A stretch of DNA of 64,000 nucleotides from Pseudomonadota bacterium (GCA_021324755.1 JAJPIL010000001.1:152-64151); one strand, 5' to 3'; positions 3,452-22,546 are shown, counted from the stretch's first letter. The notes: a model not told the origin generated them from the letters alone. Program-made: numbers and translations.

Positions 3452-4283
3452 ACCTTCCTTCGCGCCTCGGATATACAAAAGCTATACTCGCTTTGACCGC
3501 AGAGGGCAAGCCGTAACGATCGATTCTCACCGCACGCCCGATCTGCAAGGAATGCGACCTTCCTGCGATTGCCCGCACCCCGCTCATCTGCGGACTAAAT
3601 CGCAGGCAGGCTTGCACCGGAGTTCTCGGCGCTAGCGCGCTTAAGTATACGCGCTTTGCCGCACAAGCCGCCGCTTCGGCTGTTTCCGCAATTACGTCTT
3701 GCGCTAGCAGACGCGATCGATTATCGAAAATAAGCCCGAAAGACCCGTGACCCAACCTACCGCAACAGAACGGAAGCAATATGAACGTTGAGAACAGTAA
3801 CAGCGATTTTTTCCGACACGCTAACGCCGATTAAAACAAAAACCCGTAGAGGCCGAGCTTCAACTGCACAGCAAGGCCAGTGACACGCAGCGCCGATTGT
3901 GTTCGCCCGCCTTGGAGATAGCCGTGTCCTGGCCATTTCGATTGCTATATGTGCAGTTTACTAGGTATGCTACCCACACATCGGTAGCGAGCGTCAGCGC
4001 CGTATCGGCCTCCAGCAGAAACGCGAGCCCATCCAGGCCTGCGGCGAACGGTTCCGCCGACGCCTCCGGTCAGTTCACTGTCCTCTCCGCGACCTGCAGG
4101 GAGCGTTCAGCGGTCACTTATCGGAAGCGTCGTCGACATGTAAGAGGGGGATGACGAAACTTACAGGGCGGGGCTGGGACGGGTCCACTGTGGGTCGCCA
4201 CATGACCTACGCCGTCTCGGACCACGCGAATGCCGCCACTGTCCGATTCGCGATCTTCTGGTGGCCCATCTGGAGGTGAGGAC

Positions 4284-6730: not shown

Positions 6731-7005
6731 CCGCTTGCTTTCTTGAGCAACTCGAGCGAAAAGTTTAAAAGTCGGCCGCTTTTTCGAACAAAAAGTTCGC
6801 AGGCACAGTTGCTTTTCTCGAGCCATAGGTTCGACAGTTCCTAGTCTTCTTCGAGCGAGAAATTTTATCCGTCGCTTCCCTTCTGCGAGCAAAAGCTTTA
6901 CTTGCGGCTTGTTTTTTCTCGGGCGAAACGCTTGTCATCTTCTTTTGCCTTTTCGAGCGGCGACCTTACCTGCCGCTTGCTTTTTTCGAGCGAGAACTTT
7001 AAGAG
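6731..7005. repeat. array of about 8 degenerate direct repeats, period about 34-36 bp, core CTTGCTTTTYTCGAGCGARAA containing the near-palindrome TTCTCG-AG-CGAGAA
   Basis: Read directly from the sequence. Units start near 6731, 6771, 6807, 6838, 6871, 6907, 6939 and 6975. The array lies in the 415-bp intergenic region between the GH88-like gene and the MerR gene. Confidence 0.7.
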
Positions 7006-7015
7006 TTGTTACTCA

Positions 7016-7769
7016 TATGGAATACACGATCGACGAGCTTTCGCGCAAAAGCGGCCTTTCGGTCGACACGATTCGCTACTACCAGGCGATCGGGCTTTTG
7101 CCGCGCCCGCGCCGCATCGGACGGCGCGCGCTGTACGCCGACTCCCATCTGGAGCGCCTCAAGGAGATTCGTGCCGGCGCACGCGCCGGACTTCCGCTCA
7201 AGGTGATGGCGGCGATGCTCAAGGCGCGCGGCTCGCTCGGGCCCGAGCTCGAGCTTTACGCCGCGCTTAGCAAGCCGCGGGCAAATCCGCGCTTTACCGC
7301 GCGCCAGATCGCGCGCGAGCTCGGCGTGCGCCCCGAGCTAGTGGAGCTCGCCGAGCGGCTCGGGCTCACCTACGGCGAACCGACGTCGGGCGGCCGGATG
7401 CGCTACTCGCGGGCCGATCTGCGCGCCGCGCGCAGCGCCAAAAAAATCTTCTCCTACGGCTTTCCGGTAAGTAAGCTCTTTGCGCTTGCCGTACGCCACG
7501 ACCGCGCCGTAAGGGCCACGGTCGACCAGGCGATCGAGCTTTTCGACCGCTACGTGCGCCGACCCAAAACCACAAACGGCCGCGAAGACCTAGCAGCCGT
7601 GGCGCGCGCCTTCAGCGAGCTCTTCCCAGCCGTAAGCAGCCTTGTCGCCTACCATTTCCAGCGCGTGCTCGTCCAGCGCGCGCTCTCGCGCCTAAAACAA
7701 TCCGCGCCGCAGGCGACCTACCGGCTCGCTCGCAGGACGGCGTACCAGGTCTACGCCTACCAGATTTGA
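7016..7769 (+). CDS. MerR-family transcriptional regulator
   Basis: N-terminal HTH MEYTIDELSRKSGLSVDTIRYYQAIGLLPRPRRIGRRALYADSHLERLKEI is a canonical MerR DNA-binding domain. The C-terminal effector domain is not recognised. ATG at 7016; the ORF track extends upstream to 6909. Confidence 0.8.
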
Positions 7770-7802
7770 ACCCGTAGCCGCCCGATTCCCGAGGTGCCAG
7801 CG

Positions 7803-9245
7803 ATGGGCTCGACGATCGATCGTTCGCAGGAAAGCGAAGCTCCCATGTCGGCGCAAAAAGCCTCCCCACGCAAGCTTGCGCGCGAGCTCGTGCGGCTCGA
7901 CACTGCGCCCGACCTGCTTGCGCTTGCGCGCGCTTGCCCGGCAAGCCGTCTTTTTTACTTCGAACATCCGGCACGGAACTTCGCGCTTCTAGGCGTCGAT
8001 TCCGCCCTGCAAATCGCCACGCGCGGCCGCGGACGCCTGCCCGCGCTCTCGCGCACAATTCGTACCGCGCTCGCCGAGCTTGCCGCCGACCGCGCCGAAC
8101 CTCCGCCCGTCGCGGTCGGAGGCTTCGGCTTTTTCGACTTCGAGAGCGAGTCTCCCAGGTGGCGCGATTTTCCGCCGGCCTTGCTTTTCGTGCCCAAGCT
8201 CCTGTGGACGATCGACGGCGGCACGAAAACTTTATCGCTCGTTTTCGACTCGCCCGCCGAGCGTGCCGAGATCTGGGCGATGGCGCAACGCCTGATCGCG
8301 GCGGCAAGCGCTGGCACGATGCCCAAAGCCTTCGCTTCGCCGTCCCCGGAGCGCATCGATTCGGCGGCGCGCCCCGAGCGCGATGCGCTCGCACAGGGTT
8401 TACCGCCCGCTTCCGCGCCCGACTTCATGGGGCACGACCAACAGGAGCAGGAGCGCCTTCGATGGCGGGAGCGTGTCGAACGGGCGCTGGCGAGGCTTTC
8501 TTCGGGCGAGCTTCAAAAGATCGTGCTCTCGCGCGCCAAGACCGCGCGCCTGCCGGCGGGGCTCGACCCTGGGACGATCGTTGCGCGGCTGCGCTCGAAG
8601 CGGCCGCGATGCGCAAGCTTCTGGATGAAGCAGGGCGAAAAAAGCTTTATCGGCTCGACGCCAGAGCTCCTGGTGCGGCTTTGCGCCGGGCGGCTCGAGT
8701 CGGCCGCGATGGCTGGTTCGGCGCCGCGCGCACAGACGCCGGAGCGCGACGCCGAGGCCGCGCGCCGGCTCCTGGTCTCGCCCAAGGAGCTTTTCGAGCA
8801 CAAGCTCGTGGTCGAGGCCGTGCGCGAGGCGCTTGCGCCCGTGGCGCGCACGCTCGAGATTCCCGCTGCGCCCGAGGTCGCCGCGTTTCCCGAGTCGTTC
8901 CATCTGCTGACCCCGATAAGAGGCGAGCTTGCCCGCGCGTGCGACGTGCTCGAGCTCGCCGCGCGCCTCCATCCCACGCCCGCCGTCTGCGGCGTGCCCT
9001 CGCTCGGCGCGCTCGAGATCCTGGCGCGCGAGGAGCCGGAGCGTGGATGGTACGCTGGAGGAATCGGATGGCTTCGAAGCGACGGCGACGGCGAATTCAT
9101 GGTCGCGCTGCGCTCGGCTCTGATCGAACGAGACCTCGTCACGATTTTCGCCGGCGCGGGAATCGTCGCCGGCTCCGACCCGGATGGGGAATTCAGCGAG
9201 ATCGAAAACAAGATGGGGGCGCTTTTGTCGGAGTTGATCCCATGA
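7803..9245 (+). CDS. menF: isochorismate synthase (chorismate-binding enzyme), menaquinone-specific
   Basis: C-terminal chorismate-binding motifs (GVPSLGALEILAREEPERGWYAGGIGWL ... GDGEFMVALRSALI ... AGAGIVAGSDPDGEFSEIENK). Immediately followed by, and overlapping, menD. GAGGTG SD before the ATG at 7803; an alternative GTG lies at 7794. Confidence 0.85.
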   Translation: MGSTIDRSQESEAPMSAQKASPRKLARELVRLDTAPDLLALARACPASRLFYFEHPARNFALLGVDSALQIATRGRGRLPALSRTIRTALAELAADRAEPPPVAVGGFGFFDFESESPRWRDFPPALLFVPKLLWTIDGGTKTLSLVFDSPAERAEIWAMAQRLIAAASAGTMPKAFASPSPERIDSAARPERDALAQGLPPASAPDFMGHDQQEQERLRWRERVERALARLSSGELQKIVLSRAKTARLPAGLDPGTIVARLRSKRPRCASFWMKQGEKSFIGSTPELLVRLCAGRLESAAMAGSAPRAQTPERDAEAARRLLVSPKELFEHKLVVEAVREALAPVARTLEIPAAPEVAAFPESFHLLTPIRGELARACDVLELAARLHPTPAVCGVPSLGALEILAREEPERGWYAGGIGWLRSDGDGEFMVALRSALIERDLVTIFAGAGIVAGSDPDGEFSEIENKMGALLSELIP

Positions 9246-11068
9246 CGGTTCGAAATCCCAACGCCAAAGCCGCGCTCGCCCTGCTCGAGGAACTCTGCCG
9301 CTTGGGCGTGCGCGAGGTATGTATCAGCCCGGGCTCGCGCTCGACGGCGCTCGTGACCGCCGCGCTCAAGACGGCCGCGATGCGCTCGCGGGTAATCCTG
9401 GACGAGCGTTCGAGCGCTTTCTTCGCGCTCGGGCTTGCGCGCGCCTCGGGCCGACCGGCGCTCGCGATCTGCACCTCGGGCACCGCCGCCGCCAACTTCA
9501 TGCCCGCCGTGGTCGAAGCCAACCTCTCCCATACGCCGCTAATCGTGCTTACCGCCGACCGCCCGCCCGAGCTTCAGGATTGTCACGCGCCCCAGACGAT
9601 CGACCAGACGCGGCTTTACGGTGTTCACGTGCGCCTCAGTATCGAGCTTCCGGCGCCCGAGGACCGGCCCGACCTGGAAGAGAATTTCCGCGCCGCCGCC
9701 TTCCGCGCCTTCGCGGCGGCGATTGGAATCCCGCCCGGCCCGGTACATATAAACTTCCCCATGCGCGAGCCCCTGATCGACGTCGCGGAGGAAAAAGCTG
9801 CGCTCGACCGCCTAAGCGAGTCTCGATCCACGCCGACGCCTGCGTCCTCGGAGCCGCCGCCCACGGTCGCGATACTCCCAAGCCTGCTCGGCCCCGACCA
9901 GGCTGCCGTGGAGCAGCTCAAATCCACGCTCGATCGCAGCCTGCGCGGGCTTATTATCTGCGGCCCTGGGACGCTTGCCGGCCCCGACCCCGAAAAGGCG
10001 AAAAGAAGTATCCTTGCGCTCGCCGAGCGCCTCGACTGGCCCGTGCTCGCCGACCCGCTCTCCGGGATGCGTTTTGGTCGGCACGACGCAAGCCGTATCG
10101 TCGACGCCTACGACGTGTTGACCCGCGAGCGCAGGCTCGATCCCGCGCTCGCGCCCCAAGCCGCGATCCAGTTCGGACATCCGCTGACTTCCAAGGCGAC
10201 GCTCGAATTTCTGGCGCGCAACAAGCCGCTTGCCTTCTACCTGGTCGTCGCGCCGTGCGGAACCTGGCCCGACCCGTACCGCCTGGCCACGGCCGCGCTG
10301 CGCGCCGATCCGGTCGCGCTTTGCACCGCGCTGCTCGAGCAACACGGGCTTGCGCCCGCGCCCGCCGATTGGCGCGCACGATGGGAGATCGCGTCGCGCG
10401 CCGCGCGGGAGCGCCTAAACGCTCTGCTTGCCGACTATCAGGCACCTTTCGAAGGAAAAGTGTTCACGGAGCTTTTGGCCCGAATGCCCGAGCATAGCCT
10501 CCTCTACGTCGGCAACAGCATGCCCGTGCGCGACCTCGACACCTTCGGCCCTGCGCTCGGCCGCGAAATCCGCGTGCTCGCCAACCGCGGCGCAAACGGA
10601 ATCGACGGCGTCCTTTCCAGCGCGGCCGGCGCAAGCGCCGGCGCCTCGTGCCCCACCGTTTTGGTGCTGGGCGACCTAAGCTTCCTCCACGACTTGAGCG
10701 GCCTGCTCACCGCCGCGCGCTGGGCGCCGAACCTCACCGCCGTCGTGCTCAACAACGACGGCGGCGCGATCTTCTCGTTTCTGCCCCATGCCGCGCTCGG
10801 CGCGCCGTTCGTAACATACTTCGTCGCGCCCCACGGTCTCAAAGACCTCGCGCCCGCCGCCGAGCTCGTCGCCACGAACTTAAGCCGCCCGCAAAACTGG
10901 CCAGAGTTCGGCCAGACGCTTAAGCGCGCGCTCTGCGCGCCGGGCTTCAAGCTCGTCGAAGTCCGAACCGACCGCGACCAAAACCTAAAGCTCCATCGCC
11001 ACTTTATCGCCGAGGCGCTGGCGGCAAGCTGCCAGGCTCTCGCGCAGCGCGGGCTTCTACGAGAGTGA
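9242..11068 (+). CDS. menD: 2-succinyl-5-enolpyruvyl-6-hydroxy-3-cyclohexene-1-carboxylate synthase (TPP-dependent)
   Basis: N-terminus AKAALALLEELCRLGVREVCISPGSRSTALV ... GRPALAICTSGTAAANFMPAVVEANLSHTPLIVLTADRPPEL is the MenD TPP-enzyme signature. ATG at 9242 overlaps the menF stop. The 1044-aa ORF in the track is an upstream read-through artefact. Confidence 0.9.
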   Translation: MTVRNPNAKAALALLEELCRLGVREVCISPGSRSTALVTAALKTAAMRSRVILDERSSAFFALGLARASGRPALAICTSGTAAANFMPAVVEANLSHTPLIVLTADRPPELQDCHAPQTIDQTRLYGVHVRLSIELPAPEDRPDLEENFRAAAFRAFAAAIGIPPGPVHINFPMREPLIDVAEEKAALDRLSESRSTPTPASSEPPPTVAILPSLLGPDQAAVEQLKSTLDRSLRGLIICGPGTLAGPDPEKAKRSILALAERLDWPVLADPLSGMRFGRHDASRIVDAYDVLTRERRLDPALAPQAAIQFGHPLTSKATLEFLARNKPLAFYLVVAPCGTWPDPYRLATAALRADPVALCTALLEQHGLAPAPADWRARWEIASRAARERLNALLADYQAPFEGKVFTELLARMPEHSLLYVGNSMPVRDLDTFGPALGREIRVLANRGANGIDGVLSSAAGASAGASCPTVLVLGDLSFLHDLSGLLTAARWAPNLTAVVLNNDGGAIFSFLPHAALGAPFVTYFVAPHGLKDLAPAAELVATNLSRPQNWPEFGQTLKRALCAPGFKLVEVRTDRDQNLKLHRHFIAEALAASCQALAQRGLLRE

Positions 11069-11077
11069 GTTCGTGCC

Positions 11078-11986
11078 ATGGTCCGCAAAGTCGCAACCTC
11101 GCTTGCAACCTTCGAGCTTGCCGACGAGACGGCGCCGCGCCGATCATGCTCGAGCGCCGCACGCGACCACGAGCGATTGCCCGTGGCGCTCCTGCACGGC
11201 TTTACCGGCAACAAGCAAAGCTTCGCCACGCTGCGCTCGGGCCTGCGCGCCAGGGGCTTTCGCGTGCTCGCCTTCGACCTTCCATTCCATGGCGGCACGG
11301 TCGTGACCGCTCCAGTTGCGGCGCTGTCGGTCGAAGGATGCGCCCGGGCGCTCGTCGAGGCGCTCGACGCGCTCGGAGTCCAGCGCTTTTGCTTGATGGG
11401 CTACTCGATGGGCGGGCGAATCGCGCTTGCGCTCGCCCTGAACCATCCAGACCGCGTCGCGCGCCTGGTACTCGAGAGCGCCTCGGCCGGAATCGCCGAC
11501 GAGCGCGAGCGCGACGAGCGCCGGCGCGCCGACGAGGAGCTCGCCAGGTTCGCCGAAGAGAACGGAATCGAGCCGTTCGTGGCACGATGGGAGGCGATGG
11601 CGCTGTTCGCTTCGCTCGGCGCGATGCCCGAGCGCAGAAAACAGGCGCTCAGACGAATCCGCCTTTCGTGCCGCGCGCCGGAGCTCGCCCGATGCCTGCG
11701 CACGCTCGGCACCGGCTCCCAGCCTTACCTGGGAGACAGGCTACACACGCTTAGCGCCGAAACGCTGCTCATCGCCGGGCGACTCGACGCGAAGTATTGC
11801 GCCGCCGCGCGTGCGATGAACCGGGCGATCGCCCGTTCGCGCCTTGCGATAATCGACGGCGCCGGCCACGTCCCCCATCTGGAACGCCCCCGCGTCGTCC
11901 TGCGCCTGGTCGCGGCGTTCCTGGCGGGCAAGGAGCCTTTGCAAGAAATCAAATCCACACAGGGAGAAGAGATGCGATGTCGGTAA
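11078..11986 (+). CDS. menH: 2-succinyl-6-hydroxy-2,4-cyclohexadiene-1-carboxylate synthase (alpha/beta hydrolase)
   Basis: Alpha/beta-hydrolase with nucleophile elbow ([16 protein letters not shown]) and a C-terminal [11 protein letters not shown] motif. Sits between menD and menB, as in classical men operons. Confidence 0.75.
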
Positions 11987-12801
11987 AGTGGGTCAAACTT
12001 CGCGACTACCAAGATATCAAGTACGAAAAAGTGGAAGGCGAAGCGATCGCCAAGATAACGATCAATCGCCCCCACGTGCGAAACGCCTTCCGCCCGCTTA
12101 CGGTAAGCGAGATGATCGACGCGTTTTCGCGCGCCCGCGACGACGCCGATATCGGCGTGATTATCCTTACCGGCGAAGGGACGCTCGCCTTTTGCAGCGG
12201 CGGCGACCAGCGCGTGCGCGGCGACCAGGGCTACGTCGGCGAGGACAAAATACCGCGCCTCAACGTGCTCGACCTGCAAAAGCTGATCCGCAGTATCCCC
12301 AAGCCGGTGGTGGCGATGGTCGCCGGCTACGCGATCGGCGGAGGCCACGTGCTTCACGTGGTGTGCGACCTTACGATCGCCGCCGACAACGCCGTCTTCG
12401 GCCAGACCGGCCCCAGAGTGGGAAGCTTCGACGGCGGCTTCGGCGCCTCCCAGCTCGCCCGCCTCGTCGGCCAAAAGAAGGCGCGCGAAATATGGTATCT
12501 GTGCCGCCAGTACAGCGCCAAGGAAGCGCTCGAGATGGGATTGGTCAACACGGTCGTGCCGCTGGCCGAACTGGAGCAAACGACGCTCCAATGGTGCCGC
12601 GAGATGCTGGCGATGAGCCCGTTGGCGCTGCGATGCCTTAAGTCGGCGTTCAACGCCGAAATGGACGGGATGGCGGGAATTCAGGAGCTCGCCGGCAACG
12701 CAACGCTGCTCTACTACATGACCGAAGAGGCCCAGGAAGGGCGAAACGCGTACCTCGAGAAGCGTAAGCCCGACTTCTCGCGCTTCAGACGGCTGCCATG
12801 A
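11977..12801 (+). CDS. menB: 1,4-dihydroxy-2-naphthoyl-CoA synthase (crotonase fold)
   Basis: [40 protein letters not shown] ... [16 protein letters not shown] is diagnostic for MenB. AGGGAGAAGA SD before the ATG at 11977. Overlaps the menH stop by 10 nt. Confidence 0.9.
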
Positions 12802-13739
12802 GCGGCGAGAAAGAAAACCGCTTGCCTGGCGCTCACGGACGTTCTGACGCCGAGGGTGCCATGCGCGATCTCGGCGGGCTTTCGAAATGGGTGATGGCGG
12901 CGCGGCCGCGCACCTTGCCGGCGGCGGTCGTGCCCGTAATCGTGGGGCTTTCGCTCGCGCGCCGCTTCCGACCGCTCGACCCGCTGGTAGCGGCCGCCAC
13001 GCTCGCCGCCGCGCTCCTGATCCAGATCGGCACCAACTACGCCAACGACTACTACGACTTCGTCTCGGGAGCCGACGTTCCGGGCCGCCTGGGTCCGACG
13101 AGAATCACCCAGGCGGGGCTCGCCACGCCCAGCGCGGTAAAGCGCGCCGCCTTCGCCTCGCTCGGCCTTGCGGCGGCGATCGGCCTCTACCTGGTCGCCA
13201 AGGGCGGATGGCCGATTCTTTTAGTTGGCGTGGCCTCGCTCGCAAGCGCGCTCGCCTACAGCGCCGGCCCCTATCCGCTCGCCTCGCTCGGCCTGGGAGA
13301 CCTTTTCGTTTTTATCTTCTTCGGCCTGGTCGCGGTAAACGGCGCCGTCTATCTTCAGGGCGCACCGCTCGGCGCGCTGTCGCTGCTCGCCTCGCTGCCC
13401 GTAGCCTGCCTGGTGACGGCGATCCTTGTGGTGAACAACGTGCGCGACATCCCCACCGACGCCCAGGCAGGCAAGCGCACGCTTGCCGTGCGCTTGGGCG
13501 AGCGGGCGGGCCGGCTCGAGTACTACGTGCTGGTCGCGGGCGCCTACCTGGCGCTGGTCCCGCTCTGGAAGGCGGCGGGAGCGGGCGTGATGCTCGCGCT
13601 GCTAAGCGCGCCCGTGGCGCTTGCCGAAGCGCGCGCCTTCAGCGTGCGACGAGGTGCCGCGCTCAACCAAAGCCTTGCCGGCACGGCGCGCCTCCATCTG
13701 ATCTTCGGCCTTCTGCTCGCGCTGGGACTTCTGCTCTGA
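12798..13739 (+). CDS. menA: 1,4-dihydroxy-2-naphthoate polyprenyltransferase (UbiA family)
   Basis: Polytopic membrane protein with the UbiA-family motif [20 protein letters not shown] and [24 protein letters not shown] overlap with the menB stop. Confidence 0.85.
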
Positions 13740-14002
13740 GCACGCCCCGAGCAGGCGGCGCCGTATCGCTCCTTCCACTTTCGCCTTCGCGCGCAAAGGC
13801 CGCCTGCTCAAGGTTAATGCCGTAATTTTTACCTGCACGGGGCGCTTTCCACTCGCGCCCGGCCGCACCTCGAAGCTCAGCCTTGACGCCTTTGAAAAGG
13901 CGCGCTCGAATCGTGCTTGTCAGGCGCGGGCAGCAGCGCTATGGGAGAACAAGACATCTTTTGGGTGCTCGATCGAGGATAGCGACTTTTACGGGATTGG
14001 CG

Positions 14003-15196
14003 ATGAGGATCGTTCGCGCCGAAATCGAACATCGAAGGCTTAAGCTTCGTGCTCCGCTTACGACCTCGCGAGCGACGATCGCCGAACGCGAAAGCTTCGT
14101 GCTGCGCCTTTACGACGAACAAGGTGTTTGGGGCGCGGGCGAGGCCGCCCCGCCCTACTGGCTGGGAGGCGAAACGCTAAAACAAACCTACGCCTCGCTG
14201 AGCGCCGTCGCCGAGCTCGTCGCCCGCCGCTCCCATCCGGGCACCCATCCCGCGCTTCTGCTACCGGAGCGAAAAGGCCGTCTGTCAGGCGCTTGCGCCG
14301 CAAGGCGAACTCGCCTTCGAGAGGCTCCTGGAGGAGAAAGATTGTGCGGTCGGCGCAGGCTTGCTGAGCTCGCCGTAGCGCTTTCGCCGGCTGCGCGATG
14401 CGCGCTCGAGGCAGCGATGCTCGACCTCGAGGCGAGGCTCAAGGGCGCAAGCGTGGCCTCGCTTCTCTCGCGAGCTTTGCCAAAAACGTCTCCCAACCAG
14501 CCGCTTTACGTCTCGGCGCTGCTCAAGGCGCGCACCGCGCCCGGCGTCTACGCCGAGGCGCGCGCGCTGGCCGACAAGGGCTTTTGCGCCTTCAAGCTCA
14601 AAGTGGGAGCGCGCGAGATCGAGGACGACCTTGCGCTGCTGCGCGCGCTAAGACGGGCGCTTGCCTCGAGCGGCGCAAAGACGGCCTCGATTCGGCTCGA
14701 CGCAAATCGTGCCTTCTCCTTTGGCACAGCGCTCGAATTTCTCAAAGCCGCGCTCGCCGAAGGGCCGCTCGAGTTCGTCGAGGAGCCGCTCAAAAGGCCT
14801 GCGCCGGCGGCGCTTGCGCGCCTTCGCCACGAGCTCGCCGTTGCGATCGCGCTCGATGAGTCCGTGACCAGCGAGTCGCAACTGCGCACCTACCTTCGCG
14901 CCGGCGCGCTCGACGTCGTGGTGGTAAAGACTGCACGCCTGGGAGGACTAAGCTCCGCGCTCGAGCTCGCCCGCACAGCGCTCGGCGCGGGGGCACGCGT
15001 ATGTGTCACCGACGCGATCGAAGGGCCGCTCGGGATGGCCGCCGCGGTCCATCTGGGAGCGGCGCTCTCTCCGTTCGCGCTCGCTCTGGGTCTGGGAGGC
15101 GCACGCTACCTTGCCGAGCGCGTGCTCGGCGACTTCCCAGCTCGTGCGCCAATCCTTTTCGCATGCGCGCCCGGCTTCTCGGTGCAAGCCGCCTAG
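14003..15196 (+). CDS. menC: enolase-superfamily enzyme, most likely o-succinylbenzoate synthase
   Basis: KLKVG ... IRLDANRAFS ... FVEEPL ... AIALDESV pattern of metal ligands typical of the MR/MLE subgroup. Position downstream of menA. ATG at 14003 lies inside a longer ORF that starts at 13883. Confidence 0.7.
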   Translation: MRIVRAEIEHRRLKLRAPLTTSRATIAERESFVLRLYDEQGVWGAGEAAPPYWLGGETLKQTYASLSAVAELVARRSHPGTHPALLLPERKGRLSGACAARRTRLREAPGGERLCGRRRLAELAVALSPAARCALEAAMLDLEARLKGASVASLLSRALPKTSPNQPLYVSALLKARTAPGVYAEARALADKGFCAFKLKVGAREIEDDLALLRALRRALASSGAKTASIRLDANRAFSFGTALEFLKAALAEGPLEFVEEPLKRPAPAALARLRHELAVAIALDESVTSESQLRTYLRAGALDVVVVKTARLGGLSSALELARTALGAGARVCVTDAIEGPLGMAAAVHLGAALSPFALALGLGGARYLAERVLGDFPARAPILFACAPGFSVQAA

Positions 15197-15690
15197 CGCC
15201 CCATCCCCGCCCAAGGCAAAAACCTGCCCGCCGCGCGCACCTGGCGCGCCAAGGGCTTGACCGGCACTCGCTTGCACTCTAGCCTTGAAAAGCTTCCAGG
15301 CGCTGGCTTGCAAGAAGAGCCGCCCGCTCGGACTTCTCGCTCAAAGTCCACGAGGATGGTTTTTTCGATCTCTTCGCCGTCGGCGCTGAATTTTTTAAGG
15401 GCAGGCGAAAAAATTCACAAACTCGACACGCCAAGCGATTGCATCAAGGGCGCCTGTTTTACTAGCCTGTTTCAAGCCCACCAAATTGGGTATGCTTGGC
15501 AAGCCGGTGCGCCGACGATCGTGGGTGGCGAACCGGCGTTGTGGATGGAGCGCGGGAGGAGCGAAGGCAAACCGATGCTTGCCGGCGCCCGACCTTGGCG
15601 GGCGAGCTTCGGCCCGAAGCCCGCGACCGCGTAAGGCGCGCCTGACCCGGTCAGGCGCGAAAAAATCGCGAGCAGGAGGAGAAAAGTTGC

Positions 15691-16407
15691 ATGGCTGGTT
15701 CGAAACCAAAAGGACGCGTGTCCGCTTTGCTCGGACTTTCCCTGGGGACCGTCCTAGCGCTAAACGGCTGCAGCCTCAACGGCGTGACCGAAAGACGTGA
15801 ACGGATCAAGCGATGTATGATCAACGGCGCGATCTTGGGCGCGATGACCGGTGGCCTTGCAGGCGGCCTTACGGCGGCGCGCTCGGATTGGTCCGACAAC
15901 GCCAAGATCGGACTTCCCGCCGGAATCGTGGGCGGCGCTTTAGTCGGCAGCGCCTTGGGTTACCTGATGTGCCCCGAGCAGCAGGCGCAAGCCGCGCCAC
16001 CGCCGCCGCCACCGCCGCCGCCACCGCCACCTCCCCCACCTCCACCTCCGCCTGCTGCGCCCCCAGCTAAGAAGATTATTCTGCGCGGCGTGCACTTCGA
16101 CTTCGACAAAGCGGTGATCCGGCCGGTCGACGAGCCGGTGCTGGATGAGGCCGTGGAGACGCTCAAGGAGAACCCCAATTTGCGGGTCGAGGTCAACGGC
16201 TACACCGACGCTATCGGCAGCGAGGCCTACAATTTAAGGCTTTCCGAGCGGCGTGCCCAAGCGGTGGCGCGCTACCTTGAAGCGCACGGAATCGCGCGCG
16301 ATCGGCTGATTATCCACGGCTACGGCAAGACCCATTTCGTGGCCACCAACCGAACCGCCGAAGGCCGCGCGCAAAACCGCCGAGTCGAACTGATCCCGAT
16401 TCAGTAG
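15691..16407 (+). CDS. OmpA-family (OmpA/MotB/Pal-like C-terminal domain) lipoprotein with 21-residue polyproline linker
   Basis: Signal/lipobox LALNGCS. The C-terminal domain NGYTDAIGSEAYNLRLSERRAQAVARYL ... GYGKTHFVATNRTAEGRAQNRRVEL is a canonical OmpA_C peptidoglycan-binding domain. AGGAGGAG SD upstream. Confidence 0.85.
   Translation: MAGSKPKGRVSALLGLSLGTVLALNGCSLNGVTERRERIKRCMINGAILGAMTGGLAGGLTAARSDWSDNAKIGLPAGIVGGALVGSALGYLMCPEQQAQAAPPPPPPPPPPPPPPPPPPPAAPPAKKIILRGVHFDFDKAVIRPVDEPVLDEAVETLKENPNLRVEVNGYTDAIGSEAYNLRLSERRAQAVARYLEAHGIARDRLIIHGYGKTHFVATNRTAEGRAQNRRVELIPIQ
15997..16059 (+). repeat. 63-nt (CCN)21 tract encoding P21
   Basis: Direct reading: an uninterrupted run of CCG/CCA/CCT/CCC codons inside the OmpA-family gene. 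Confidence 0.9.
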
Positions 16408-16444
16408 CGCAAGCCACACCCGTTGGCCGACACGCGCTAAGGCT

Positions 16445-16480
16445 CCGGCCGCGCCCTGTTGACTTCAAGGGCGCGGCCGG
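16445..16480 (+). terminator. GC-rich hairpin (12-bp perfect stem CCGGCCGCGCCC / GGGCGCGGCCGG, 12-nt loop) 38 bp downstream of the OmpA-family gene
   Basis: Perfect inverted repeat read from the sequence. There is no clear U-tract, so it is an intrinsic-terminator candidate only. Confidence 0.4.
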
Positions 16481-16538
16481 ATTAAGGCTTGTAGCTTGAA
16501 AAACCGAAAGCCCGGCAGGGGGAGAAGAGTCGAGAGCT

Positions 16539-17042
16539 ATGGGGAAGTTCGGATCGACTGCCGCCGTGATCCGCTCGTCCGCGGCGGCGCTACTTTTGTG
16601 CGTGATCGCTCTTGCCCAAGCAAAATCGGCCGCCGCCCAAGGACTCGACGCACAGCGCCCGGGCGCAAGCCTGACCGCCAGAGCCGCGCGCGCCGACGAC
16701 AGCTCGAGCCTTTACCGCGAGGCCGAACGCGCCTTTCCGGCCTTCTGCCGCGAGTGGGAACGAAAACTGCGCCAACGCGAGCAGGACAACCTTGCCAACC
16801 TTAGATGGAGCGAGCGCAACGGCTACCAGACCGCGACCTACGTCGGCTACGGCCCGATCGAAAGCTGCGTCTGCAAGCGCTCAGCAAAAGGCCAGCCCGT
16901 CGGCAAAATCGTATACCGCGAGATGGTCTACTACTTGGTCGGGCGCACCGTGGAAGAGGCCAAGCGTAGCCAACCCAAACTTATCGGCAGCACCGATACG
17001 GTCGAGCTTTTCAACTGGAGCGGCCATCGATGGGAATACTGA
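16539..17042 (+). CDS. hypothetical secreted protein (167 aa) with N-terminal signal peptide
   Basis: GGGGGAG SD before the ATG. N-terminus AALLLCVIALAQAKSAAAQ is signal-peptide-like. No recognised domain. Confidence 0.5.
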   Translation: MGKFGSTAAVIRSSAAALLLCVIALAQAKSAAAQGLDAQRPGASLTARAARADDSSSLYREAERAFPAFCREWERKLRQREQDNLANLRWSERNGYQTATYVGYGPIESCVCKRSAKGQPVGKIVYREMVYYLVGRTVEEAKRSQPKLIGSTDTVELFNWSGHRWEY

Positions 17043-17690
17043 GCGGCGCAACTTTGCGCGCCGTCCGACCGAAGGCGCCCAGCGCTCAAGCTCCGAACAA
17101 GCCGCCCCGGGCTAAAGCCGCGCACGTCTCGAACCATTCAGCACACCCCTAGCGCTAAGCGCTCTTGCGCGCTTGCGGCCTGGGCGCAAAGGCCCGAGGA
17201 GCGCGCAAGCCCACGGACGCGCCGAACCATCTTGGCGCTTTCGCGCCGCGGCTGCGCACGACGGCTCGAAGGTGCGCTCTTTCGCCGAGGCCTCCTCCCA
17301 GAGGCACCTGCGCACCGGCGAAAGGCGGTCCCGGCGTTGCAAGATAAGTTTGCGGCGCGCGCAAGCCAATTTGGAAGGCGCGCACCTTCCAGGCTAAAAC
17401 GTCACCGCCAAACAAGGGGCCTTGGCCGGGTCTATCTCGTGGCGGCCCGCGCCCTGGATGGAGCGGCGCGAAAAGACGCCCCCGAGCGGAACAAGCGAGC
17501 GCAAAGCGCCAGCCCCCGCGCAAACCCGCCCGAACGGAGCCTCTTTCGCGCCCTCTCTACCACGGGCGCCGAGCTTGTGTGAACCGAACCCCCCGTTTGT
17601 ATCGTTTCCGCAACCGAGCGTCGTCTTCCCCCCAAAATGTGCGCGCCGGCGTCGTCTACCGCGCCGACGCTGACACCGCACGCTTGCCGC

Positions 17691-17924
17691 TCAGCTGCTC
17701 CTGCGCTTGAACGTAAGCGCAAGTTCGCTTCCGCGAAGCGTGCAGGTCACATTGTCGCCGGCCTTGAGCCTTAGCGCCTTGCGCACCGGGGCGGGAATAA
17801 CGATTCGCCCCTGCAAATCGAGCTTGACGGTGTAGGAGTCCGCTTTCTTAGGCGGCTTGGAAACTTTTTGCGCCTTCACCATCGGTTTCGATTTCGCCTT
17901 CATAGCCGTAACCCTCTGTACCAT
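17691..17924 (-). CDS. AbrB/MazE/SpoVT-type DNA-binding protein (orphan antitoxin-like regulator)
   Basis: LQGRIVIPAPVRKALRLKAGDNV matches the swapped-hairpin AbrB domain. No partner toxin ORF is evident downstream. Preceded by an AT-richer promoter-like spacer at 17925..18178. Confidence 0.6.
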   Translation of the reverse strand: MVQRVTAMKAKSKPMVKAQKVSKPPKKADSYTVKLDLQGRIVIPAPVRKALRLKAGDNVTCTLRGSELALTFKRRSS

Positions 17925-18178
17925 AGTCTAATTATATATCCATCCACGCGTGACTTGCATAATTCCCCATCAACCTCCTTCGCAGCCACGAGCTTAGCTT
18001 GTAACCATAAATACGCGATAAAGCAACTCCCCAGACGCAAAATTGTGGGGATTTGCACCCTGCGAGGGGCAAAACCAGACCAAAGCGGGGGTCTAGATGC
18101 CCCGACCGGGCAGGATCCAGGTCCGGCGCCGTGATATGCAAGTTTGCTCTGATTGAGGCTCTCGAAATTTTTGACGCG

Positions 18179-18736
18179 CTAAGCTTCGTCAGCGTCGTCT
18201 TGCTTGGCGTCGTCAGCGGCGGCGTCGTCGCCTTGCTTGGCGTCGTCGGCCTGCGACTCGTCGCCCAGGTAGACAGAACTATTCGGCGCCGCCAGATATT
18301 CGCGCAACGCCACGATCGACAGTTTGTCGAACGAGGCAAGCGTGGCCTCGGTCTGTTGGCGCGCCGGCGCGTCGAGCCCCAGAAGGGCCGCTTCGCGCTC
18401 CTCGATCTTAAGCGCCCGGTCGATCGCTTTTAGCGGCTCGCGCTCAAAATGTTGCCACAAAAGCCTGCGCATCGCACCAAGCCGCCGGAGCATCGCTTGT
18501 CGCGCCTGCTCCAGGTCGCTCGTCGGCTCCTGTCGAGCCTCGCGCAAAAGCGCCGCAAGTTCGCCGACGCCTCTTCCAGGGGCCTTCCGCTCGCTCCTGG
18601 TCTCGCCGCTCGCCGCAACCTGTGGCAGCAGGGGTTTTGCCGAACCGCGTTTGGTTGCGGCTTTAATCCCATTTTTTCGTTTCGGTCCTCGAGTGGAAGT
18701 CCTTTGGTTGGTCGGCCGCTTATCCCTCGTTCGCAT
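18179..18736 (-). CDS. hypothetical protein, basic N-terminus (K/R-rich) and acidic D/A/K-repeat C-terminal tail
   Basis: ORF co-directional with the upstream replicon-like genes. The C-terminal DDAKQGDDAAADDAKQDDADEA is encoded by short GAC-GAC-GCC repeats. No family recognised. Confidence 0.45.
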   Translation of the reverse strand: MRTRDKRPTNQRTSTRGPKRKNGIKAATKRGSAKPLLPQVAASGETRSERKAPGRGVGELAALLREARQEPTSDLEQARQAMLRRLGAMRRLLWQHFEREPLKAIDRALKIEEREAALLGLDAPARQQTEATLASFDKLSIVALREYLAAPNSSVYLGDESQADDAKQGDDAAADDAKQDDADEA

Positions 18737-18741
18737 CGATC

Positions 18742-18916
18742 GCCTCGCTCGATTTTTTGGATCTGTTTCTTTGGTACGCTCAATCGTGCTCCCCGTCGCG
18801 CCTTTTTGGTCCGCCTAGTCGCGGTCCCCATCGCGCCTTTTTGGTCGGCTTAATCGTGACCTCTAACGCACCTTTTGATAGGCCTAATCGCGGCTTTCGT
18901 CGCGCCTTTTTTCGCC
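18742..18916. repeat. about 5 tandem 35-bp direct repeats (consensus about GCYTAATCGYGSTCCCCRTCGCGCCTTTTTGGTCS), iteron-like
   Basis: Read directly. Four clean units lie at 18777-18811, 18812-18846, 18847-18881 and 18882-18916, with a degenerate fifth upstream. They occupy the intergenic space between the zinc-ribbon gene and the 185-aa gene. Confidence 0.75.
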
Positions 18917-19357
18917 TTCCAGCGCGATAAGAGCGGCGCTCAGGCGCAAAAGGGCGCCAGGCGCGGGCGGCACGAGCGCGTCGAAGCCGCGGGCGAAGAA
19001 GTCGGGATGCCAGTGCGCGGGGTAGTCGGCGATCGTCTGTCCGGGCAGGAGGCCGCGCGCAAGCAGCGCCGCCTTGTTGGCAAGTACGTTGCAGTCGCGG
19101 CAGATAAGCTCCTCGAGCGGCCCGGCGCATCGCGCACACCCCATCGGCGCGCCGCATCGCCAGCACGGCGGATGGGGCGGTGCGGGCGAATGATGGGGCA
19201 GATGCGGGTTGGTCATTTGCGCGAACAGCGCGCGCCCGCCTTCGCAATGGAAAACCGGCGTCTGTGGCTTCCATCCAAGCGCCCCAAGGTCAGCGCCGCA
19301 TTCGGGGCAAAACGCGCGTTCGCCTGCCGAGTTCGAAAATCGCCGCTTAATCGCCAT
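18884..19357 (-). CDS. hypothetical zinc-ribbon protein (four CxxC pairs: CPEC, CWRC, CARC, CRDC)
   Basis: AGGAGG SD 7 nt before the ATG at 19357, directly after the stop of the Rep-like gene. The ORF track gives a longer overlapping reading that starts at 19546. Confidence 0.5.
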   Translation of the reverse strand: MAIKRRFSNSAGERAFCPECGADLGALGWKPQTPVFHCEGGRALFAQMTNPHLPHHSPAPPHPPCWRCGAPMGCARCAGPLEELICRDCNVLANKAALLARGLLPGQTIADYPAHWHPDFFARGFDALVPPAPGALLRLSAALIALEGEKRRDESRD

Positions 19358-19358
19358 C

Positions 19359-20810
19359 CTATCGCCTCCTGGTCTGCCCTTCGACGGCGCGCTCGAGCCA
19401 GCGCGCGACGAACCGCTTGACCGTTTGCGCCGAGGGCGCCCGGCTCGGGTTTCCATCCAACCAGAGCGCCATCTTGGCGAACTCCGCCTCGAGCATCTCA
19501 AGGCTAAGCCCGCCGACGGCCTCGCTAAGCCGACACCAAAAGTCATAATCCGAAAGCAGAACGTCTAGCGTCGGCCCGCTGAAAGTCCTTTGGCGCTTGC
19601 GCAAAAAGCGCTCGAGCCATCGGTCCTGCTCCTCCCATCGCAATTCGCCGCCTCCAGCCGTGCCGTCCGCGCCGCCGGCACTTGCACTGGAGGGCTTGAA
19701 GGGCGCGCCCTGGGTGGGTTCGCGCTCGGGAAAATAAGCGCCAGCGCCGGCGCGGTCACCGTCCGGGCCGCAACTGCGCGCCAGGCAAGGCGTATCCGAG
19801 CCCGAAGCAGCGCAGCTGGAGGAAATCGTTTTGGGCAACAGGAGGCTGCCTAAACCGCTCGCTTGGCGGCACAAGCGGCCTAAAGAATTCTCCTCGGACC
19901 AGTCGCCGCCGACGCTTGCCGATAGCGCCGCAGAAAAGCTGCTGTTTGCCTCGGCGTCGGCGCACGAAAAGCCGACTTCGACCCGACGGCGCGCCGAAAA
20001 AGTGCTGGGGTCGGCCGAAGCACGTGCATGGAAGGCGACGGCCTGGTCCGCAGTGCAGCTGCCGGCGGTATCAACGGAATTAGGAGAGAACAACGATTGG
20101 ACATTGGACGATAGCGAATTGATCGATCTGGAGGCTGGATCGCCATTTAGCGCCTTGCCGTTACATTTAACGGCTTGGCCAGCGGAATGGATCGGCGAGC
20201 TAGCGGTTGAGTGCGACGAGCGAGGCGAAAAGGAAGGAAAATCGCTGTCGCTAGCGAGGCGTGGACGGGCGTTAGGAGGTGCTGGAGTATGGGCCGCGGG
20301 CGGTAACTCGTAGTTGCTGCTTTTCTCAGGGTCAGGGGCGTGCAGGGCGCAGGGATCTGAACTGATTTGGCTCGGGCTCGAGGCCTGCGTGGATGGCGAA
20401 TCTGGGTCGAGTTCGTGGGCGCGCGAGGTCGAGGGTGGGGGCGGCGAAAAGCTCACGTTTTTGGAAGCGCAAGATTCGGGCGGCGGAGGGGGAATCTCGC
20501 TTTGCGCTTCGTGCGGATGAGGCCGTTGATGGCGTCGCCAGGTGGGAATCGCGATATACGCTTCGCCTGCGACGCGGTAGCGTACGATCAAGTTTTGGCG
20601 CGCAAGCTCTTCGAGCCAGCGGTCGACCTGCGCGGGCTTGAGCCGGTCGTAAGGGAAGAGCTTTATCGCGATATGTTCGGGACGGTCCTTGAGCCGCCCT
20701 TCGCGGTCGGCCATATTCCACAGGCCGATAAAAGTGAGCCGGGCATGGTGACTTAGGCGGCCGATTTGGGGGCTTTCCCAGAACTCGGGTCGAATCGTTC
20801 TGATGCGCAT
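19359..20810 (-). CDS. phage/plasmid-associated replication-initiator-like protein of the 'MRxIxPEFW' family. N-terminal winged-helix-like domain, long S/P/A-rich low-complexity linker, then a distinct C-terminal domain of about 100 aa.
   Basis: N-terminus MRIRTIRPEFWESPQIGRLSHHARLTFIGLWNMADREGRL ... IAIKLFPYDRL ... VDRWLEELARQNLIVRY resembles a family I recall from prophage and plasmid replication or replisome-organiser modules. I cannot name the Pfam family with certainty. The flanking iteron-like repeats support a replication role. Confidence 0.5.
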   Translation of the reverse strand: MRIRTIRPEFWESPQIGRLSHHARLTFIGLWNMADREGRLKDRPEHIAIKLFPYDRLKPAQVDRWLEELARQNLIVRYRVAGEAYIAIPTWRRHQRPHPHEAQSEIPPPPPESCASKNVSFSPPPPSTSRAHELDPDSPSTQASSPSQISSDPCALHAPDPEKSSNYELPPAAHTPAPPNARPRLASDSDFPSFSPRSSHSTASSPIHSAGQAVKCNGKALNGDPASRSINSLSSNVQSLFSPNSVDTAGSCTADQAVAFHARASADPSTFSARRRVEVGFSCADAEANSSFSAALSASVGGDWSEENSLGRLCRQASGLGSLLLPKTISSSCAASGSDTPCLARSCGPDGDRAGAGAYFPEREPTQGAPFKPSSASAGGADGTAGGGELRWEEQDRWLERFLRKRQRTFSGPTLDVLLSDYDFWCRLSEAVGGLSLEMLEAEFAKMALWLDGNPSRAPSAQTVKRFVARWLERAVEGQTRRR

Positions 20811-21281
20811 AGGTTTTAGCCTCCGACTAATGGCGCGGATTTTTTGGTGCGCGACTTTTTGCGCGCTCGAGCCAGCGCGGCCTTGAGGTTGCGTACGCGG
20901 CGTTTAAAGGGGTCGAGAAGGCGCTTTGAGTTCGCCACTTTAACCGACGCTGCGCCCCAGGCGCTTGGGCCGCGTATCGCGAGAGGAAAAGATCGTTCGT
21001 TTGCACGCGGGCGCCTTGGGCCGGCTTTAACGCGACGAGGTTGATTCGGCGACAAGCGAAGGTGTCGTCCGAGGGCTTTCGGACTGGGAGGTCCGAGCGG
21101 GCGCCCAACGCGCGGTAGATTTTTTGTGTGCGGTAGGATTGGAGGATTTTTGCTTTGCGATTAGGGTTCGACTTTGCCGAAGGTCGAATTGGTTTAGCAT
21201 TGGGGATGGGGTTTAGGTGAGCGTGGCGAGACGGTCGATTGGGGTTTTGGGTTTTGGAGATGCGGGTGCGGGTTGGGACAA

Positions 21282-22100
21282 GGACGGTACGGATATCGTT
21301 TCGGACGAAGTTCTGGATTTGTCCAGGGCGAATGCCAATTTTCATCAAATCGGGGATCAGCAGGGCACGAGTCCCGGTTGGAACACAATTTGGGATTTGT
21401 GGGGCGCGAATGCTGATTCGCACGAAGCTTGGAGCGTGAAGGGCGCTGATACCGATTCGAACAAAACTGGTGATTTGACGGGCAGAAGTGCCGATTCGAA
21501 AAAAGTTCGGCGTCGGTACGACACGACTCCTGATTAGGACGCAGTTCGGAACTTCGAGGGCTTGGGTGTTAATTTGAACAAAGCGCGGAATTTGACCGGC
21601 GCAAGTCCCGATTTGTGCGAAGTTCGGGATTTTAAGGGCGCGAATCCCGGTCCGCACGAGGTTCAGGATTTGGAGCGCGCGAATGCTGATTCGCAGGAAG
21701 TGCGCAACCTGTAGGGCTAGGGTGCCAAGTCGAGCAAAGTTCTGGATTTGACGTGCGCAAATGCCGATTCGAACGAAGCTCGTGTTTTGACCGGCGCGGG
21801 TGCCAGTTTGAACGGAGCTCTTAATTTGACCGGCGCCGGTGCCGATTTGGACAAAGTTCTGGATTTTACGGGCACGAGTGCCGGTTAGAATGAAGTTGGT
21901 GACCTGACGGGTGCGGACGGCAATTCGAACGGGATTGTGGATTTGACCGGCAGGAGTGCAGGTTCGAACGAAGTTTGTGGTTTCACGGGCGCCGGTGCCA
22001 ATTCGAACAGAGCCCGGCCTTTGCCCCGCACAAACACCAATTCGAACAAGGTTTGTGGTTTGTAAGTCGCAGGCGTGAATTCGGACAAAATTCGGACAGA
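21282..22100. repeat. 21 tandem copies of a 39-bp unit (consensus about GGCGCGAGTGCCGATTCGAACGAAGTTCTGGATTTGACC), degenerate, head-to-tail
   Basis: Read directly; period exactly 39 bp (13 codons). Reading frames are broken on both strands. The ORFs 20827..21657(-), 21885..22115(-) and 21217..21537(+) each show 13-aa pseudo-repeats in different frames. Confidence 0.85.
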
Positions 22101-22546
22101 TCGTTTCAAACGCAATTCTATTTCCCGAATTCCCGCATATTTTCTGTTCTTCTCTTTTCCCGTACCCCTCTTTTGGCGTGATGTTTAATCACGGCAAAAA
22201 CAGAGAGTCGGTGTGCTGGCTGTTTGGCAAGTGAAATGCGGAGAACATGGCGCGGCAAGGCCGGCGCTCGGACAGTTTAAACGCCCGAATTAGCGAGATA
22301 CGCATGAGTGGCAGCCGATTCGAAGGAAGGCAATCAATTGCCTTAAAAGAGACAGAGCCGATATCTCGTAAGACGCGAGACTATCGCTTTTGCTAGGCGT
22401 CGAAGATATCCCATTTGAAAAATGGCACGCCCAAAAGCTACAGCAATCCGGAGGTCAAACCGATGGAAAAAGCTAGCGGGCACAGCTATCGCGCAGCTGC
22501 CTGGTTTGTACGGAGCGCTTCACCAGCCGTTATCAGAGAAATGAAG

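Follow-up and report, generated by a model that had tools for sequence, protein, structure and literature searches.

Background

The replication initiators of phages (the functional class of lambda O and SPP1 G38P, with p19 of Myxococcus phage Mx8) are built from a DNA-binding N-terminal domain, a flexible linker and a variable C-terminal domain, and are coupled to a partner gene. In lambda, the iterons of the origin and an AT-rich region lie inside O, and an initiator-loader pair makes up the gene content of a minimal replicon of the lambda dv type. Here we describe a three-gene cassette in a 64 kb stretch of DNA (hereafter the window) from a Pseudomonadota bacterium (GCA_021324755.1 JAJPIL010000001.1:152-64151), in which a Rep-like protein (Rep), a CxxC-rich zinc-ribbon protein (Zn) and a homologue of small terminases (TerS-like) are encoded one after the other (the reported genes all lie on the minus strand), and compare it with related loci on other contigs (L001, L005, L009, L019 and further ones). 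The region had been predicted to hold a plasmid/phage-like replicon module with an iteron-type origin; we argue that the cassette is probably what a domesticated temperate phage has left of the junction between its replication and packaging modules, kept by its host clade.

The closest described systems each resemble the cassette in part. Rep shares with the phage initiators the homologous N-terminal domain, the three-part architecture and the coupled partner gene, but here the linker extends over ~280 residues, the C-terminal domain is clade-specific, the next gene encodes a zinc ribbon, intragenic iterons are lacking and the gene stands alone in a chromosome. With the O-P-ori segment of lambda dv the cassette has in common a translationally coupled initiator and loader-position gene, and an initiator whose central part is a disordered linker, whereas this linker is devoid of comparable repeats, the repeats outside the genes are not conserved and the partner is unrelated to P. 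The third protein shares its core with the small terminases of family phrog_645 (and its gene comes after early genes, as in phages), but a variable basic tail stands in place of their helix-turn-helix (HTH), the C-terminal tail is not conserved and no large terminase (TerL) gene stands next to it. Staphylococcus aureus pathogenicity islands (SaPI), phage-inducible chromosomal islands (PICI) and other satellites such as PLE likewise combine, in a small chromosomal unit, an initiator and a TerS homologue with direct repeats close to rep (PMC6092414; PMC7145576), from which the cassette differs in having no integrase, att sites, repressor or excision genes and no primase-helicase, and in occupying one fixed locus where it co-diverges with its host. 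The RepA_N initiators (RepA of pTZ2162/pSK41 and of PLE) carry a DNA-binding N-terminal domain and a host-specific C-terminal one, and their iterons contain a poly-A tract (PMC7145576); their N-terminal domain is the best match of Rep among solved structures, but a weak one, and Rep is not filed in that family. Domesticated defective prophages, for their part, share with the cassette the vertical inheritance of phage genes, ratios of nonsynonymous to synonymous substitution rates (dN/dS) well below 1 and the loss of the rest of the prophage. The genes that such prophages retain are usually tail, lysis, immunity or regulatory ones, and we know of no pattern in which an initiator, a loader-slot protein and a small terminase were retained as a trio.

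The Rep-like protein

The gene for Rep (20810..19359, minus strand) encodes 483 aa with the N-terminus MRIRTIRPEFW. Residues 1-150 match PHROG replication initiation families at E 1e-37 to 1e-23, among them 16167, 2149 and 1408 (E 1e-37 to 1e-28), while neither Pfam (RepA_N included) nor NCBIfam gave a match. By tblastn, the N-terminal 110-130 residues were found in 463 phage records (Mx8 p19 among them) as opposed to 29 plasmid records, so that of the predicted phage or plasmid provenance the first half is upheld and the second is not. The N-terminal domain is ~40% identical to proteins of Mx8, Bordetella and Hafnia phages. In an AlphaFold model (42 sequences) it forms a winged-helix domain of helices and a beta-hairpin wing (residues 1-110, predicted local distance difference test, pLDDT, >90), followed by a disordered linker of ~280 residues (118-389) and a helical C-terminal domain (391-482, pLDDT 60-80), which is clade-specific and was encountered outside the clade in one protein only (P0043). 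The best fold matches in BFVD were 'replisome organizer' proteins (to E 8e-10) and Mx8 p19; the top ones in the PDB, 4pql/4pt7, were weak (E 0.016, TM 0.49, 15% identity) and followed by generic winged-helix regulators, and a PDB sequence search brought up no relative. Both structures are N-terminal domains of staphylococcal plasmid RepA initiators, an identity that PMC7145576 confirms for 4PT7. The winged-helix initiator domain anticipated by the original prediction is thus borne out by profile (PHROG, E 1e-37), model and BFVD fold matches, and the domain did not fall into a non-replicative family. From sequence and fold comparison, it is homologous to phage replication initiators and replisome organisers, with Rep as a new member of the family.

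The Rep homologues of phages stand in the lambda O position, with a gene of the helicase or helicase-loader type behind them. That of Hafnia phage yong1 comes after cI/cro/cII (one gene separates it from cII) and precedes a gene annotated as 'DNA replication protein', those of Bordetella and Gordonia phages precede a DnaB-type helicase, and that of Mx8 a DnaC-like gene; the gene after Rep in the cassette encodes the zinc-ribbon protein, not one of DnaB/DnaC type. Iterons inside the linker-coding part of Rep, as in lambda, were considered and rejected, as nothing beyond two-copy matches attributable to chance turned up in the window or its relatives. As a separate observation, in a phage-like element (L027, 9546-9630) the linker-coding part of a Rep from the same PHROG family carries short tandem repeats (10-bp x3, 18-bp x2) at the position of a lambda-O-like origin; the Rep genes of the chromosomal cassettes are free of such repeats.

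The zinc-ribbon partner

The second open reading frame (ORF; 19357..18884, minus strand, 157 aa) starts, as had been predicted, 1 nt past the TAG of Rep and has its own AGGAGG, which lies 7 nt upstream of the ATG, within the final codons of Rep. Its product has CxxC pairs and weak zinc-ribbon matches in Pfam, with no family above threshold. A word-indexed search for homologues yielded only five clusters, all from the same clade, whilst an exhaustive profile search over 1.84 billion representatives recovered 102 proteins of the family at E<=1e-3 (18 of them at E<=1e-10). Across 26 members, ~30% identical to the protein of the window, the residues C17, C20, H37, C38, H55, H56, C65, C68, G73, C74, C77 and C86 are invariant. 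No analogue was found in the PDB, the model of the protein (pLDDT 59) being too poor for a meaningful fold search.

On three long phage-like contigs the genes for homologues of Zn stand directly, or one gene, behind those for initiator or primosomal proteins. The L027 gene comes immediately behind that of a 257-aa Rep from the PHROG family of the cassette Rep (E 8e-43); for L028/L029 there is an overlap with the end of a 'primosomal protein' gene, and genes for a 520-aa protein without assigned function, portal and capsid come next; the L030 gene stands one gene behind that of a protein matching the C-terminal part of a Rep PHROG. This recurrent order, found in distant homologues, makes Rep and Zn a recurring phage gene pair and agrees with the earlier view that the two belong together. 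By its position, Zn sits in the helicase-loader slot, and a role in loading may be suggested for it.

The TerS-like protein

The third gene (18736..18179, minus strand) encodes 185 aa, with a basic N-terminus and an acidic C-terminus, and had been taken for a 'basic/acidic' member of the replication module. Residues 68-183 match phrog_645 (E 9.5e-9; orthologues at 1e-6 to 1e-8), and a conserved core of oligomerisation type covers about residues 71-150 (LKAIDRALKIEEREAALLGLDAP). One member of phrog_645, gp2 of Thermobifida phage P1312 (E 1e-31), is encoded immediately before the large terminase. A profile made of the four TerS-like orthologues found phage small terminases of 136-172 aa (P0054-P0060), of which P0054-P0058 have, judged by eye, an HTH-like N-terminal segment, together with the motif AIDRALKIQERRARLLGLDAP; the core 'AIDRALKI(E/Q)ER.A.LLGLDAP' is common to the 185-aa protein and the phage small terminases of phrog_645 type. 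The gene of P0056 overlaps that of a Terminase_6 TerL, after which come portal and capsid genes. P1312 gp2 has a sub-threshold match to HTH_23 (Pfam, E 3e-4), whereas no HTH family of Pfam matches the protein of the window or its orthologues, in which a variable basic N-terminal tail takes its place. The C-terminal tail (usually the end that binds TerL) is acidic and varies among the orthologues. The 185-aa protein is thus a truncated small-terminase homologue, reduced to its core, rather than a replication protein.

Two further observations concern this protein and its family. The coding sequence of the acidic tail DDAKQGDDAAADDAKQDDADEA (window 18193-18265) consists of 2.2 tandem copies of a 33-bp repeat, a lineage-specific expansion. 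Family phrog_645, encountered through the window gene (18179-18736) and L013 (987-1475), is labelled 'Rnase E', yet its members directly precede large terminase genes and one of them has a weak HTH match in Pfam; the label is very likely wrong, TerS being the better fit.

Searches with tblastn for TerL or other late-gene remnants found none in the window or the syntenic loci. TerL occurs only on the fifth contig, L019, where an intact-looking TerL of 563 aa (2659-4350; phrog_2, E 1e-26) comes behind Rep and Zn, the genes beyond it are non-phage ones on the opposite strand, and the TerS-like gene is missing. L019 is another remnant, in a different state, of this type of ancestral phage. Together, L019 and L028 fit an ancestor with replication genes, a Zn gene, terminase and head genes, of which the cassette would be the surviving junction.

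Synteny and selection

The close homologues of Rep (P0002-P0005) come from metagenome-assembled genomes labelled 'Deltaproteobacteria bacterium'. The window, L001, L005 and L009 share one gene order, i.e. TreS/Mak, GlgE, a luciferase-like and a HAD protein, a membrane protein of ~610 aa (612-aa), Rep, Zn and the TerS-like protein, beyond which the gene content varies among lineages and only L001 has AbrB, a 167-aa protein and OmpA in common with the window. The divergence of the cassette runs parallel to that of its flanks, the window being the outgroup. The identity between the window and the others is 82-84% for the Rep N-terminal domain, 63-67% for Zn, 57-61% for the TerS core and 66-76% for the HAD and luciferase-like flanks, and among L001, L005 and L009 it amounts to 87-94%, 76-80%, 80-82% and 70-85%, respectively. 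The three ORFs are intact across four to five lineages (synonymous divergence ~0.6-2.5), and dN/dS is 0.04-0.15 for the N-terminal and 0.08-0.32 for the C-terminal domain of Rep, 0.16-0.37 for Zn, 0.19-0.37 for the TerS core and 0.33-1.07 for the Rep linker. The Rep N-terminal domain is better conserved than the flanking HAD and luciferase-like genes. Parallel divergence of cassette and flanks, together with low dN/dS, therefore shows that the cassette has been inherited vertically at one chromosomal position under purifying selection, and not by recent mobility.

These data also bear on whether the locus is no more than a functionless, decaying prophage scar, the repeats of which would be slippage products or REP-like elements without a role. 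Isolated phage genes without structural genes or integrase are what such a scar would leave, and the neutral evolution of the Rep linker, the lineage-specific repeat expansions and the dispersed REP-like repeat around the Rep-Zn pair of L019 are in keeping with it. It is contradicted by the integrity of the three ORFs in four to five lineages with dN/dS of 0.04-0.37 in the conserved domains, by a Rep N-terminal domain better preserved than the flanking genes, by an exactly conserved operator (see below), by the retention of the coupling and by the 35-bp unit of the window not being dispersed in 390 kb. We thus give the scar only a slim chance. The repeat of L019 is a 17-nt motif, GCGCAGGCATGACGGCG, present in 6 copies in 11 kb against 0.3 expected (454-536, 2248-2292, 9879-9965); its copies flank the Rep-Zn pair on both sides, recur 7 kb away and make up a dispersed REP-like family. 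A suspected RAYT-like transposase in L001 (13095-13625) was left unconfirmed by Pfam and was disregarded.

The region upstream of Rep

Upstream of Rep, the four syntenic lineages have in common a palindrome (GTGAT-N5-ATCAC), a purine-rich spacer and an exactly conserved pair of TGTCCGAA boxes. In the window the palindrome GTGATTAAACATCAC (22178..22192, minus strand) forms the first block of this conserved region and aligns, with nearly exact conservation, with G(A/T)TTAGACATC(A/C)C in L001, L005 and L009. The boxes follow as a direct repeat, TGTCCGAATTTTGTCCGAAT (22079..22097, minus strand), in which two TGTCCGAA copies are set 11 bp apart and which is exactly conserved in the four lineages. 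The pattern TGTCCGAANNNTGTCCGA occurs exactly once in every syntenic locus of the four, and the conserved form TGTCCGAA-N3-TGTCCGA lies at 9874-9891 in L001, 9731-9748 in L005, 9879-9896 in L009 and 22079-22097 in the window; the boxes are thus exact despite a synonymous divergence of ~0.6-2.5 between lineages. Palindrome and boxes are probably operator or promoter elements, and the TGTCCGAA boxes are the best candidate target of the Rep winged helix or the operator of the cassette.

Between the boxes and the ATG of Rep there are ~110-250 nt in the relatives and ~1.27 kb in the window, where ~20 units of 39 bp and a further 0.5 kb are inserted. The 39-bp array (21301..22042, minus strand) is degenerate (~19-21 units, at least 14 of them at 60-78% identity), a GT(T/C)CGAAT-like version of the box stands at the head of each unit, and the array is absent from the relatives, i.e. 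specific to this lineage. One frame stays open for 454 codons (22188..20827), from the palindrome to 17 nt before the ATG of Rep, through the boxes and ~21 units of 13 codons, and reads as 13-residue repeats (xIGTxAxQIxNFVR) with a basic tail; the two alternative frames are interrupted in the array by 4 and 7 stops. No canonical start precedes codon 178, and the 3' part of the frame is annotated in the public record as an ORF of 276 aa (20827..21657, minus strand). Neither Pfam, PHROG, PADLOC nor a metagenome scan provided a homologue of it, and it is missing from the orthologous loci. The frame may be a young repeat-protein gene or an open array of operator-like boxes.

The 35-bp repeat array

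The tandem 35-bp repeats that follow Zn had been read as ~5 units at 18742-18916 with the classic signature of an iteron origin. Their reality and local nature stand, but, whilst Tandem Repeats Finder and a repeat finder agree on the 35-bp period, the array read in register comprises four units at 18772-18911 (18911..18772 on the minus strand), with the minus-strand consensus AAAAGGCGCGAYGGGGAsCrCGAyTAGGCnnACC and 72-79% identity of the units to the reference copy; by eye, 18737-18771 resembles the unit at about one-third of the positions. The array is above chance (Tandem Repeats Finder scores 122 and 101; 29-nt consensus found twice against 0.00 expected). The final codons of the 157-aa ORF, stop included, fall within its first unit, and the array fills the spacer between Zn and the TerS-like gene, which in the syntenic relatives measures only ~6-8 nt from the Zn stop to the ATG of the third gene. 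A four-unit nhmmer profile located no other copy in 390 kb (window and all related loci), the 29-nt consensus had zero matches elsewhere in the window, and a metagenome-wide pattern scan returned nothing but was uninformative, having missed the locus itself as well. At L001, L005, L009 and L019 the array is absent. It is, therefore, a real and local feature that is private to one lineage and not a defining part of the cassette.

Several other origins of the units were tried and dropped. A dispersed REP-like family was rejected, as the profile finds local copies only. An RNA element was likewise rejected, since neither strand folds better than shuffles (z 0.14, 1.08), and Rfam had no match in 16.5-23 kb; two units hold terminator-like hairpins, but these are no more numerous than chance predicts (9 found against 10 expected). 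Alignment of the units, as would-be copies of an ancestral junction of Zn stop, Shine-Dalgarno sequence and third-gene start, to the junctions of L001, L005 and L009 was no better than that of shuffles (p 0.04-0.98).

An intact iteron replicon would require Rep to bind the 35-bp repeats, melt the DNA and, with Zn, load the host helicase, so that the element replicates autonomously or over-replicates in situ. In favour of it, Rep belongs with the phage initiators and has a partner in the loader slot, Rep and Zn together correspond to the genes of a minimal replicon of the lambda dv type, and a real array of four direct repeats comes immediately after them. The origins of SaPI and PLE lie in repeats near rep as well (PMC7145576), and L028 has a repeat cluster at the same relative position, ~0.6-0.8 kb past its Zn gene. 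Nonetheless, the array is missing at all orthologous loci while the DNA-binding domain of Rep is 82-94% identical, its period corresponds to 3.3 helical turns (not a whole number), and the first unit lies inside the coding sequence of Zn. No DnaA-box-like 9-mer (<=1 mismatch) was found in 17-23 kb, and no AT-rich unwinding segment adjoins the array, beside which the lowest GC of any 40 bp is 0.40 (the lowest in the locus, 0.35, is found in the AbrB upstream region and the operator). For these reasons the array is not the 'classic signature' of an iteron origin. Furthermore, the Rep linker is without iterons, whereas a phage-like element with a Rep of the same family has them, and an unregulated extra origin would be unlikely to be fixed across diverged lineages. 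The array thus lacks both the neighbouring elements of an iteron origin that were looked for (DnaA boxes, AT-rich segment) and conservation along with Rep, and nothing at the locus shows a working plasmid-type origin; we judge an intact iteron replicon to be quite improbable. In this one lineage the array might nevertheless serve as iterons or a pac-like site.

Packaging, mobility and host use

The pairing of Rep with a small terminase is the hallmark of PICI-type satellites (PMC6092414), and raises the prospect of an immobilised satellite or platform for lateral transduction, in which infection by a helper would set off in-situ replication by Rep and Zn, the TerS-like protein would recruit the TerL of the helper, and the downstream chromosome would be packaged, turning that side into a hotspot of gene exchange. 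Beyond the Rep-TerS pair itself, the purifying selection on the cassette genes speaks for it, as does the variability of the side downstream of the TerS-like gene. In all four lineages there is a GC step at the cassette, with 55-60% GC on the conserved TreS-GlgE side and 62-70% in the cassette and the variable side beyond the TerS-like gene. However, the TerS-like protein is without the HTH that would recognise pac and its C-terminal tail is not conserved, no conserved pac-like sequence and no TerL were found, and there is no integrase, excisionase, primase or capsid-redirecting gene. A variable region beside a prophage scar is, moreover, equally expected from the loss of late genes and secondary insertions. 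We regard such a platform as rather unlikely. With no integrase, att sites or primase-helicase, the cassette is therefore not a PICI-type satellite.

A related possibility, which we consider unlikely, is that of a host device triggered by phages, which on infection would set off replication on the spot and/or offer the neighbouring chromosome to the terminase of the invader. This would explain why a variable side of higher GC lies downstream of the TerS-like gene in every lineage, and the 39-bp x ~20 array (possibly also the 35-bp x 4 one) would then represent amplified Rep-binding sites.

Returning to the domesticated remnant, which we consider the probable account, we propose that a temperate phage integrated in the ancestor of a small clade of uncultured 'Deltaproteobacteria' and that the rest of the prophage was lost, with Rep, Zn and the TerS-like gene left behind as an operon of three coupled genes. 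This operon would be driven and controlled from the palindrome and the two TGTCCGAA boxes conserved upstream of it, the winged helix of Rep would bind the boxes, and Zn, in the loader position, may work with the C-terminal domain of Rep. The TerS-like protein would have lost its sequence-specific HTH and may survive as an oligomeric core with basic tails. The 35-bp (4 units) and 39-bp (~20 units) arrays are recent, private expansions that the cassette does not require. Its most likely use, as we infer, would be interference with incoming related phages, by competition for their origin or replisome and their terminase, and not that of an autonomous replicon.

Several points weigh against this account. 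The data presented here lend no support to a role in phage interference, and PADLOC gave no match to a known defence system for any of the cassette proteins. An initiator with a loader-slot gene is the minimal content of a lambda-type replicon, and residual origin activity is possible. The GC step at the cassette could also fit the boundary of a recurrent horizontal gain, and the binding of Rep to the TGTCCGAA boxes is suggested by their co-conservation only. Lastly, the upstream flank of L019 is unlike the 612-aa gene, so that this contig may represent another locus, and a second acquisition may account for it.

Genomic neighbourhood

The window conforms to the original prediction in that its four ORFs (cassette and AbrB) are co-directional on the minus strand and accompanied by neither recombinase, tRNA nor att-like flank, and the notion of a remnant captured in the chromosome proved right in general terms. 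The 64 kb contain no tRNA, and the scan of their ORFs brought up neither an integrase or recombinase nor a gene for phage structural proteins; the cassette is flanked not by att-like sequences but by syntenic core genes.

Of the predicted module, the regulatory gene is confirmed as of AbrB type but falls outside the conserved unit. It encodes 77 aa (17924..17691, minus strand) and, as a small regulator of AbrB/MazE type, matches the AbrB-family domain model TIGR01439 (37.3 bits against a cutoff of 28.3, E 1.6e-9). Its orthologue in L001 lies 3 kb from the cassette, past genes on the opposite strand and followed by MscL on the other strand, and no AbrB gene exists within 10 kb of the cassette in L005 and L009; we therefore take the conserved unit to comprise three genes, with AbrB as a neighbour by comparison of loci. 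No toxin-like partner of AbrB is visible, the only following ORFs being Arg/Gly-rich overlaps without toxin features.

The remaining genes of the window are ordinary chromosomal ones, i.e. a menaquinone operon, an OmpA-like protein, Mrr, TreS/Mak, GlgE and a Tad pilus, as well as ArgS, RecD2, RecG, CarAB and PyrB/C. In window coordinates, the GC step separates ~7000-21000 (high GC) from 22000-64000. The high-GC block holds genes for MerR, MenD-like, MenH, MenB, MenA, MenC, OmpA, a 167-aa protein and AbrB; its part at 7-15 kb was considered as a mobile island, which was rejected, as it encodes the menaquinone pathway and zero mobility genes. A type IV methyl-directed restriction enzyme of the Mrr type (Pfam Mrr_N and Mrr_cat; PADLOC mREase_IV, E 1e-84) is encoded at 4230-5189 and adjoins unannotated ORFs at 837-1865 and 5450-6601.

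Implications

Taken together, these observations touch on phage annotation, on phage replication and on what a host may do with the genes of a lost prophage. The replacement of the misleading 'Rnase E' label of phrog_645 by TerS would be an annotation fix. The unnamed Cys/His family of Zn, which comprises ~100 clusters at 50% identity and recurs beside phage initiators, is a candidate for a novel class of adaptor in helicase loading or in the primosome. Should the cassette fire replication or packaging in situ, it would constitute an immobile relative of phage satellites. The fact that an initiator and a small terminase apparently deficient in DNA binding have been kept together by a host lineage hints at a use for the host, such as phage interference or local mobilisation.

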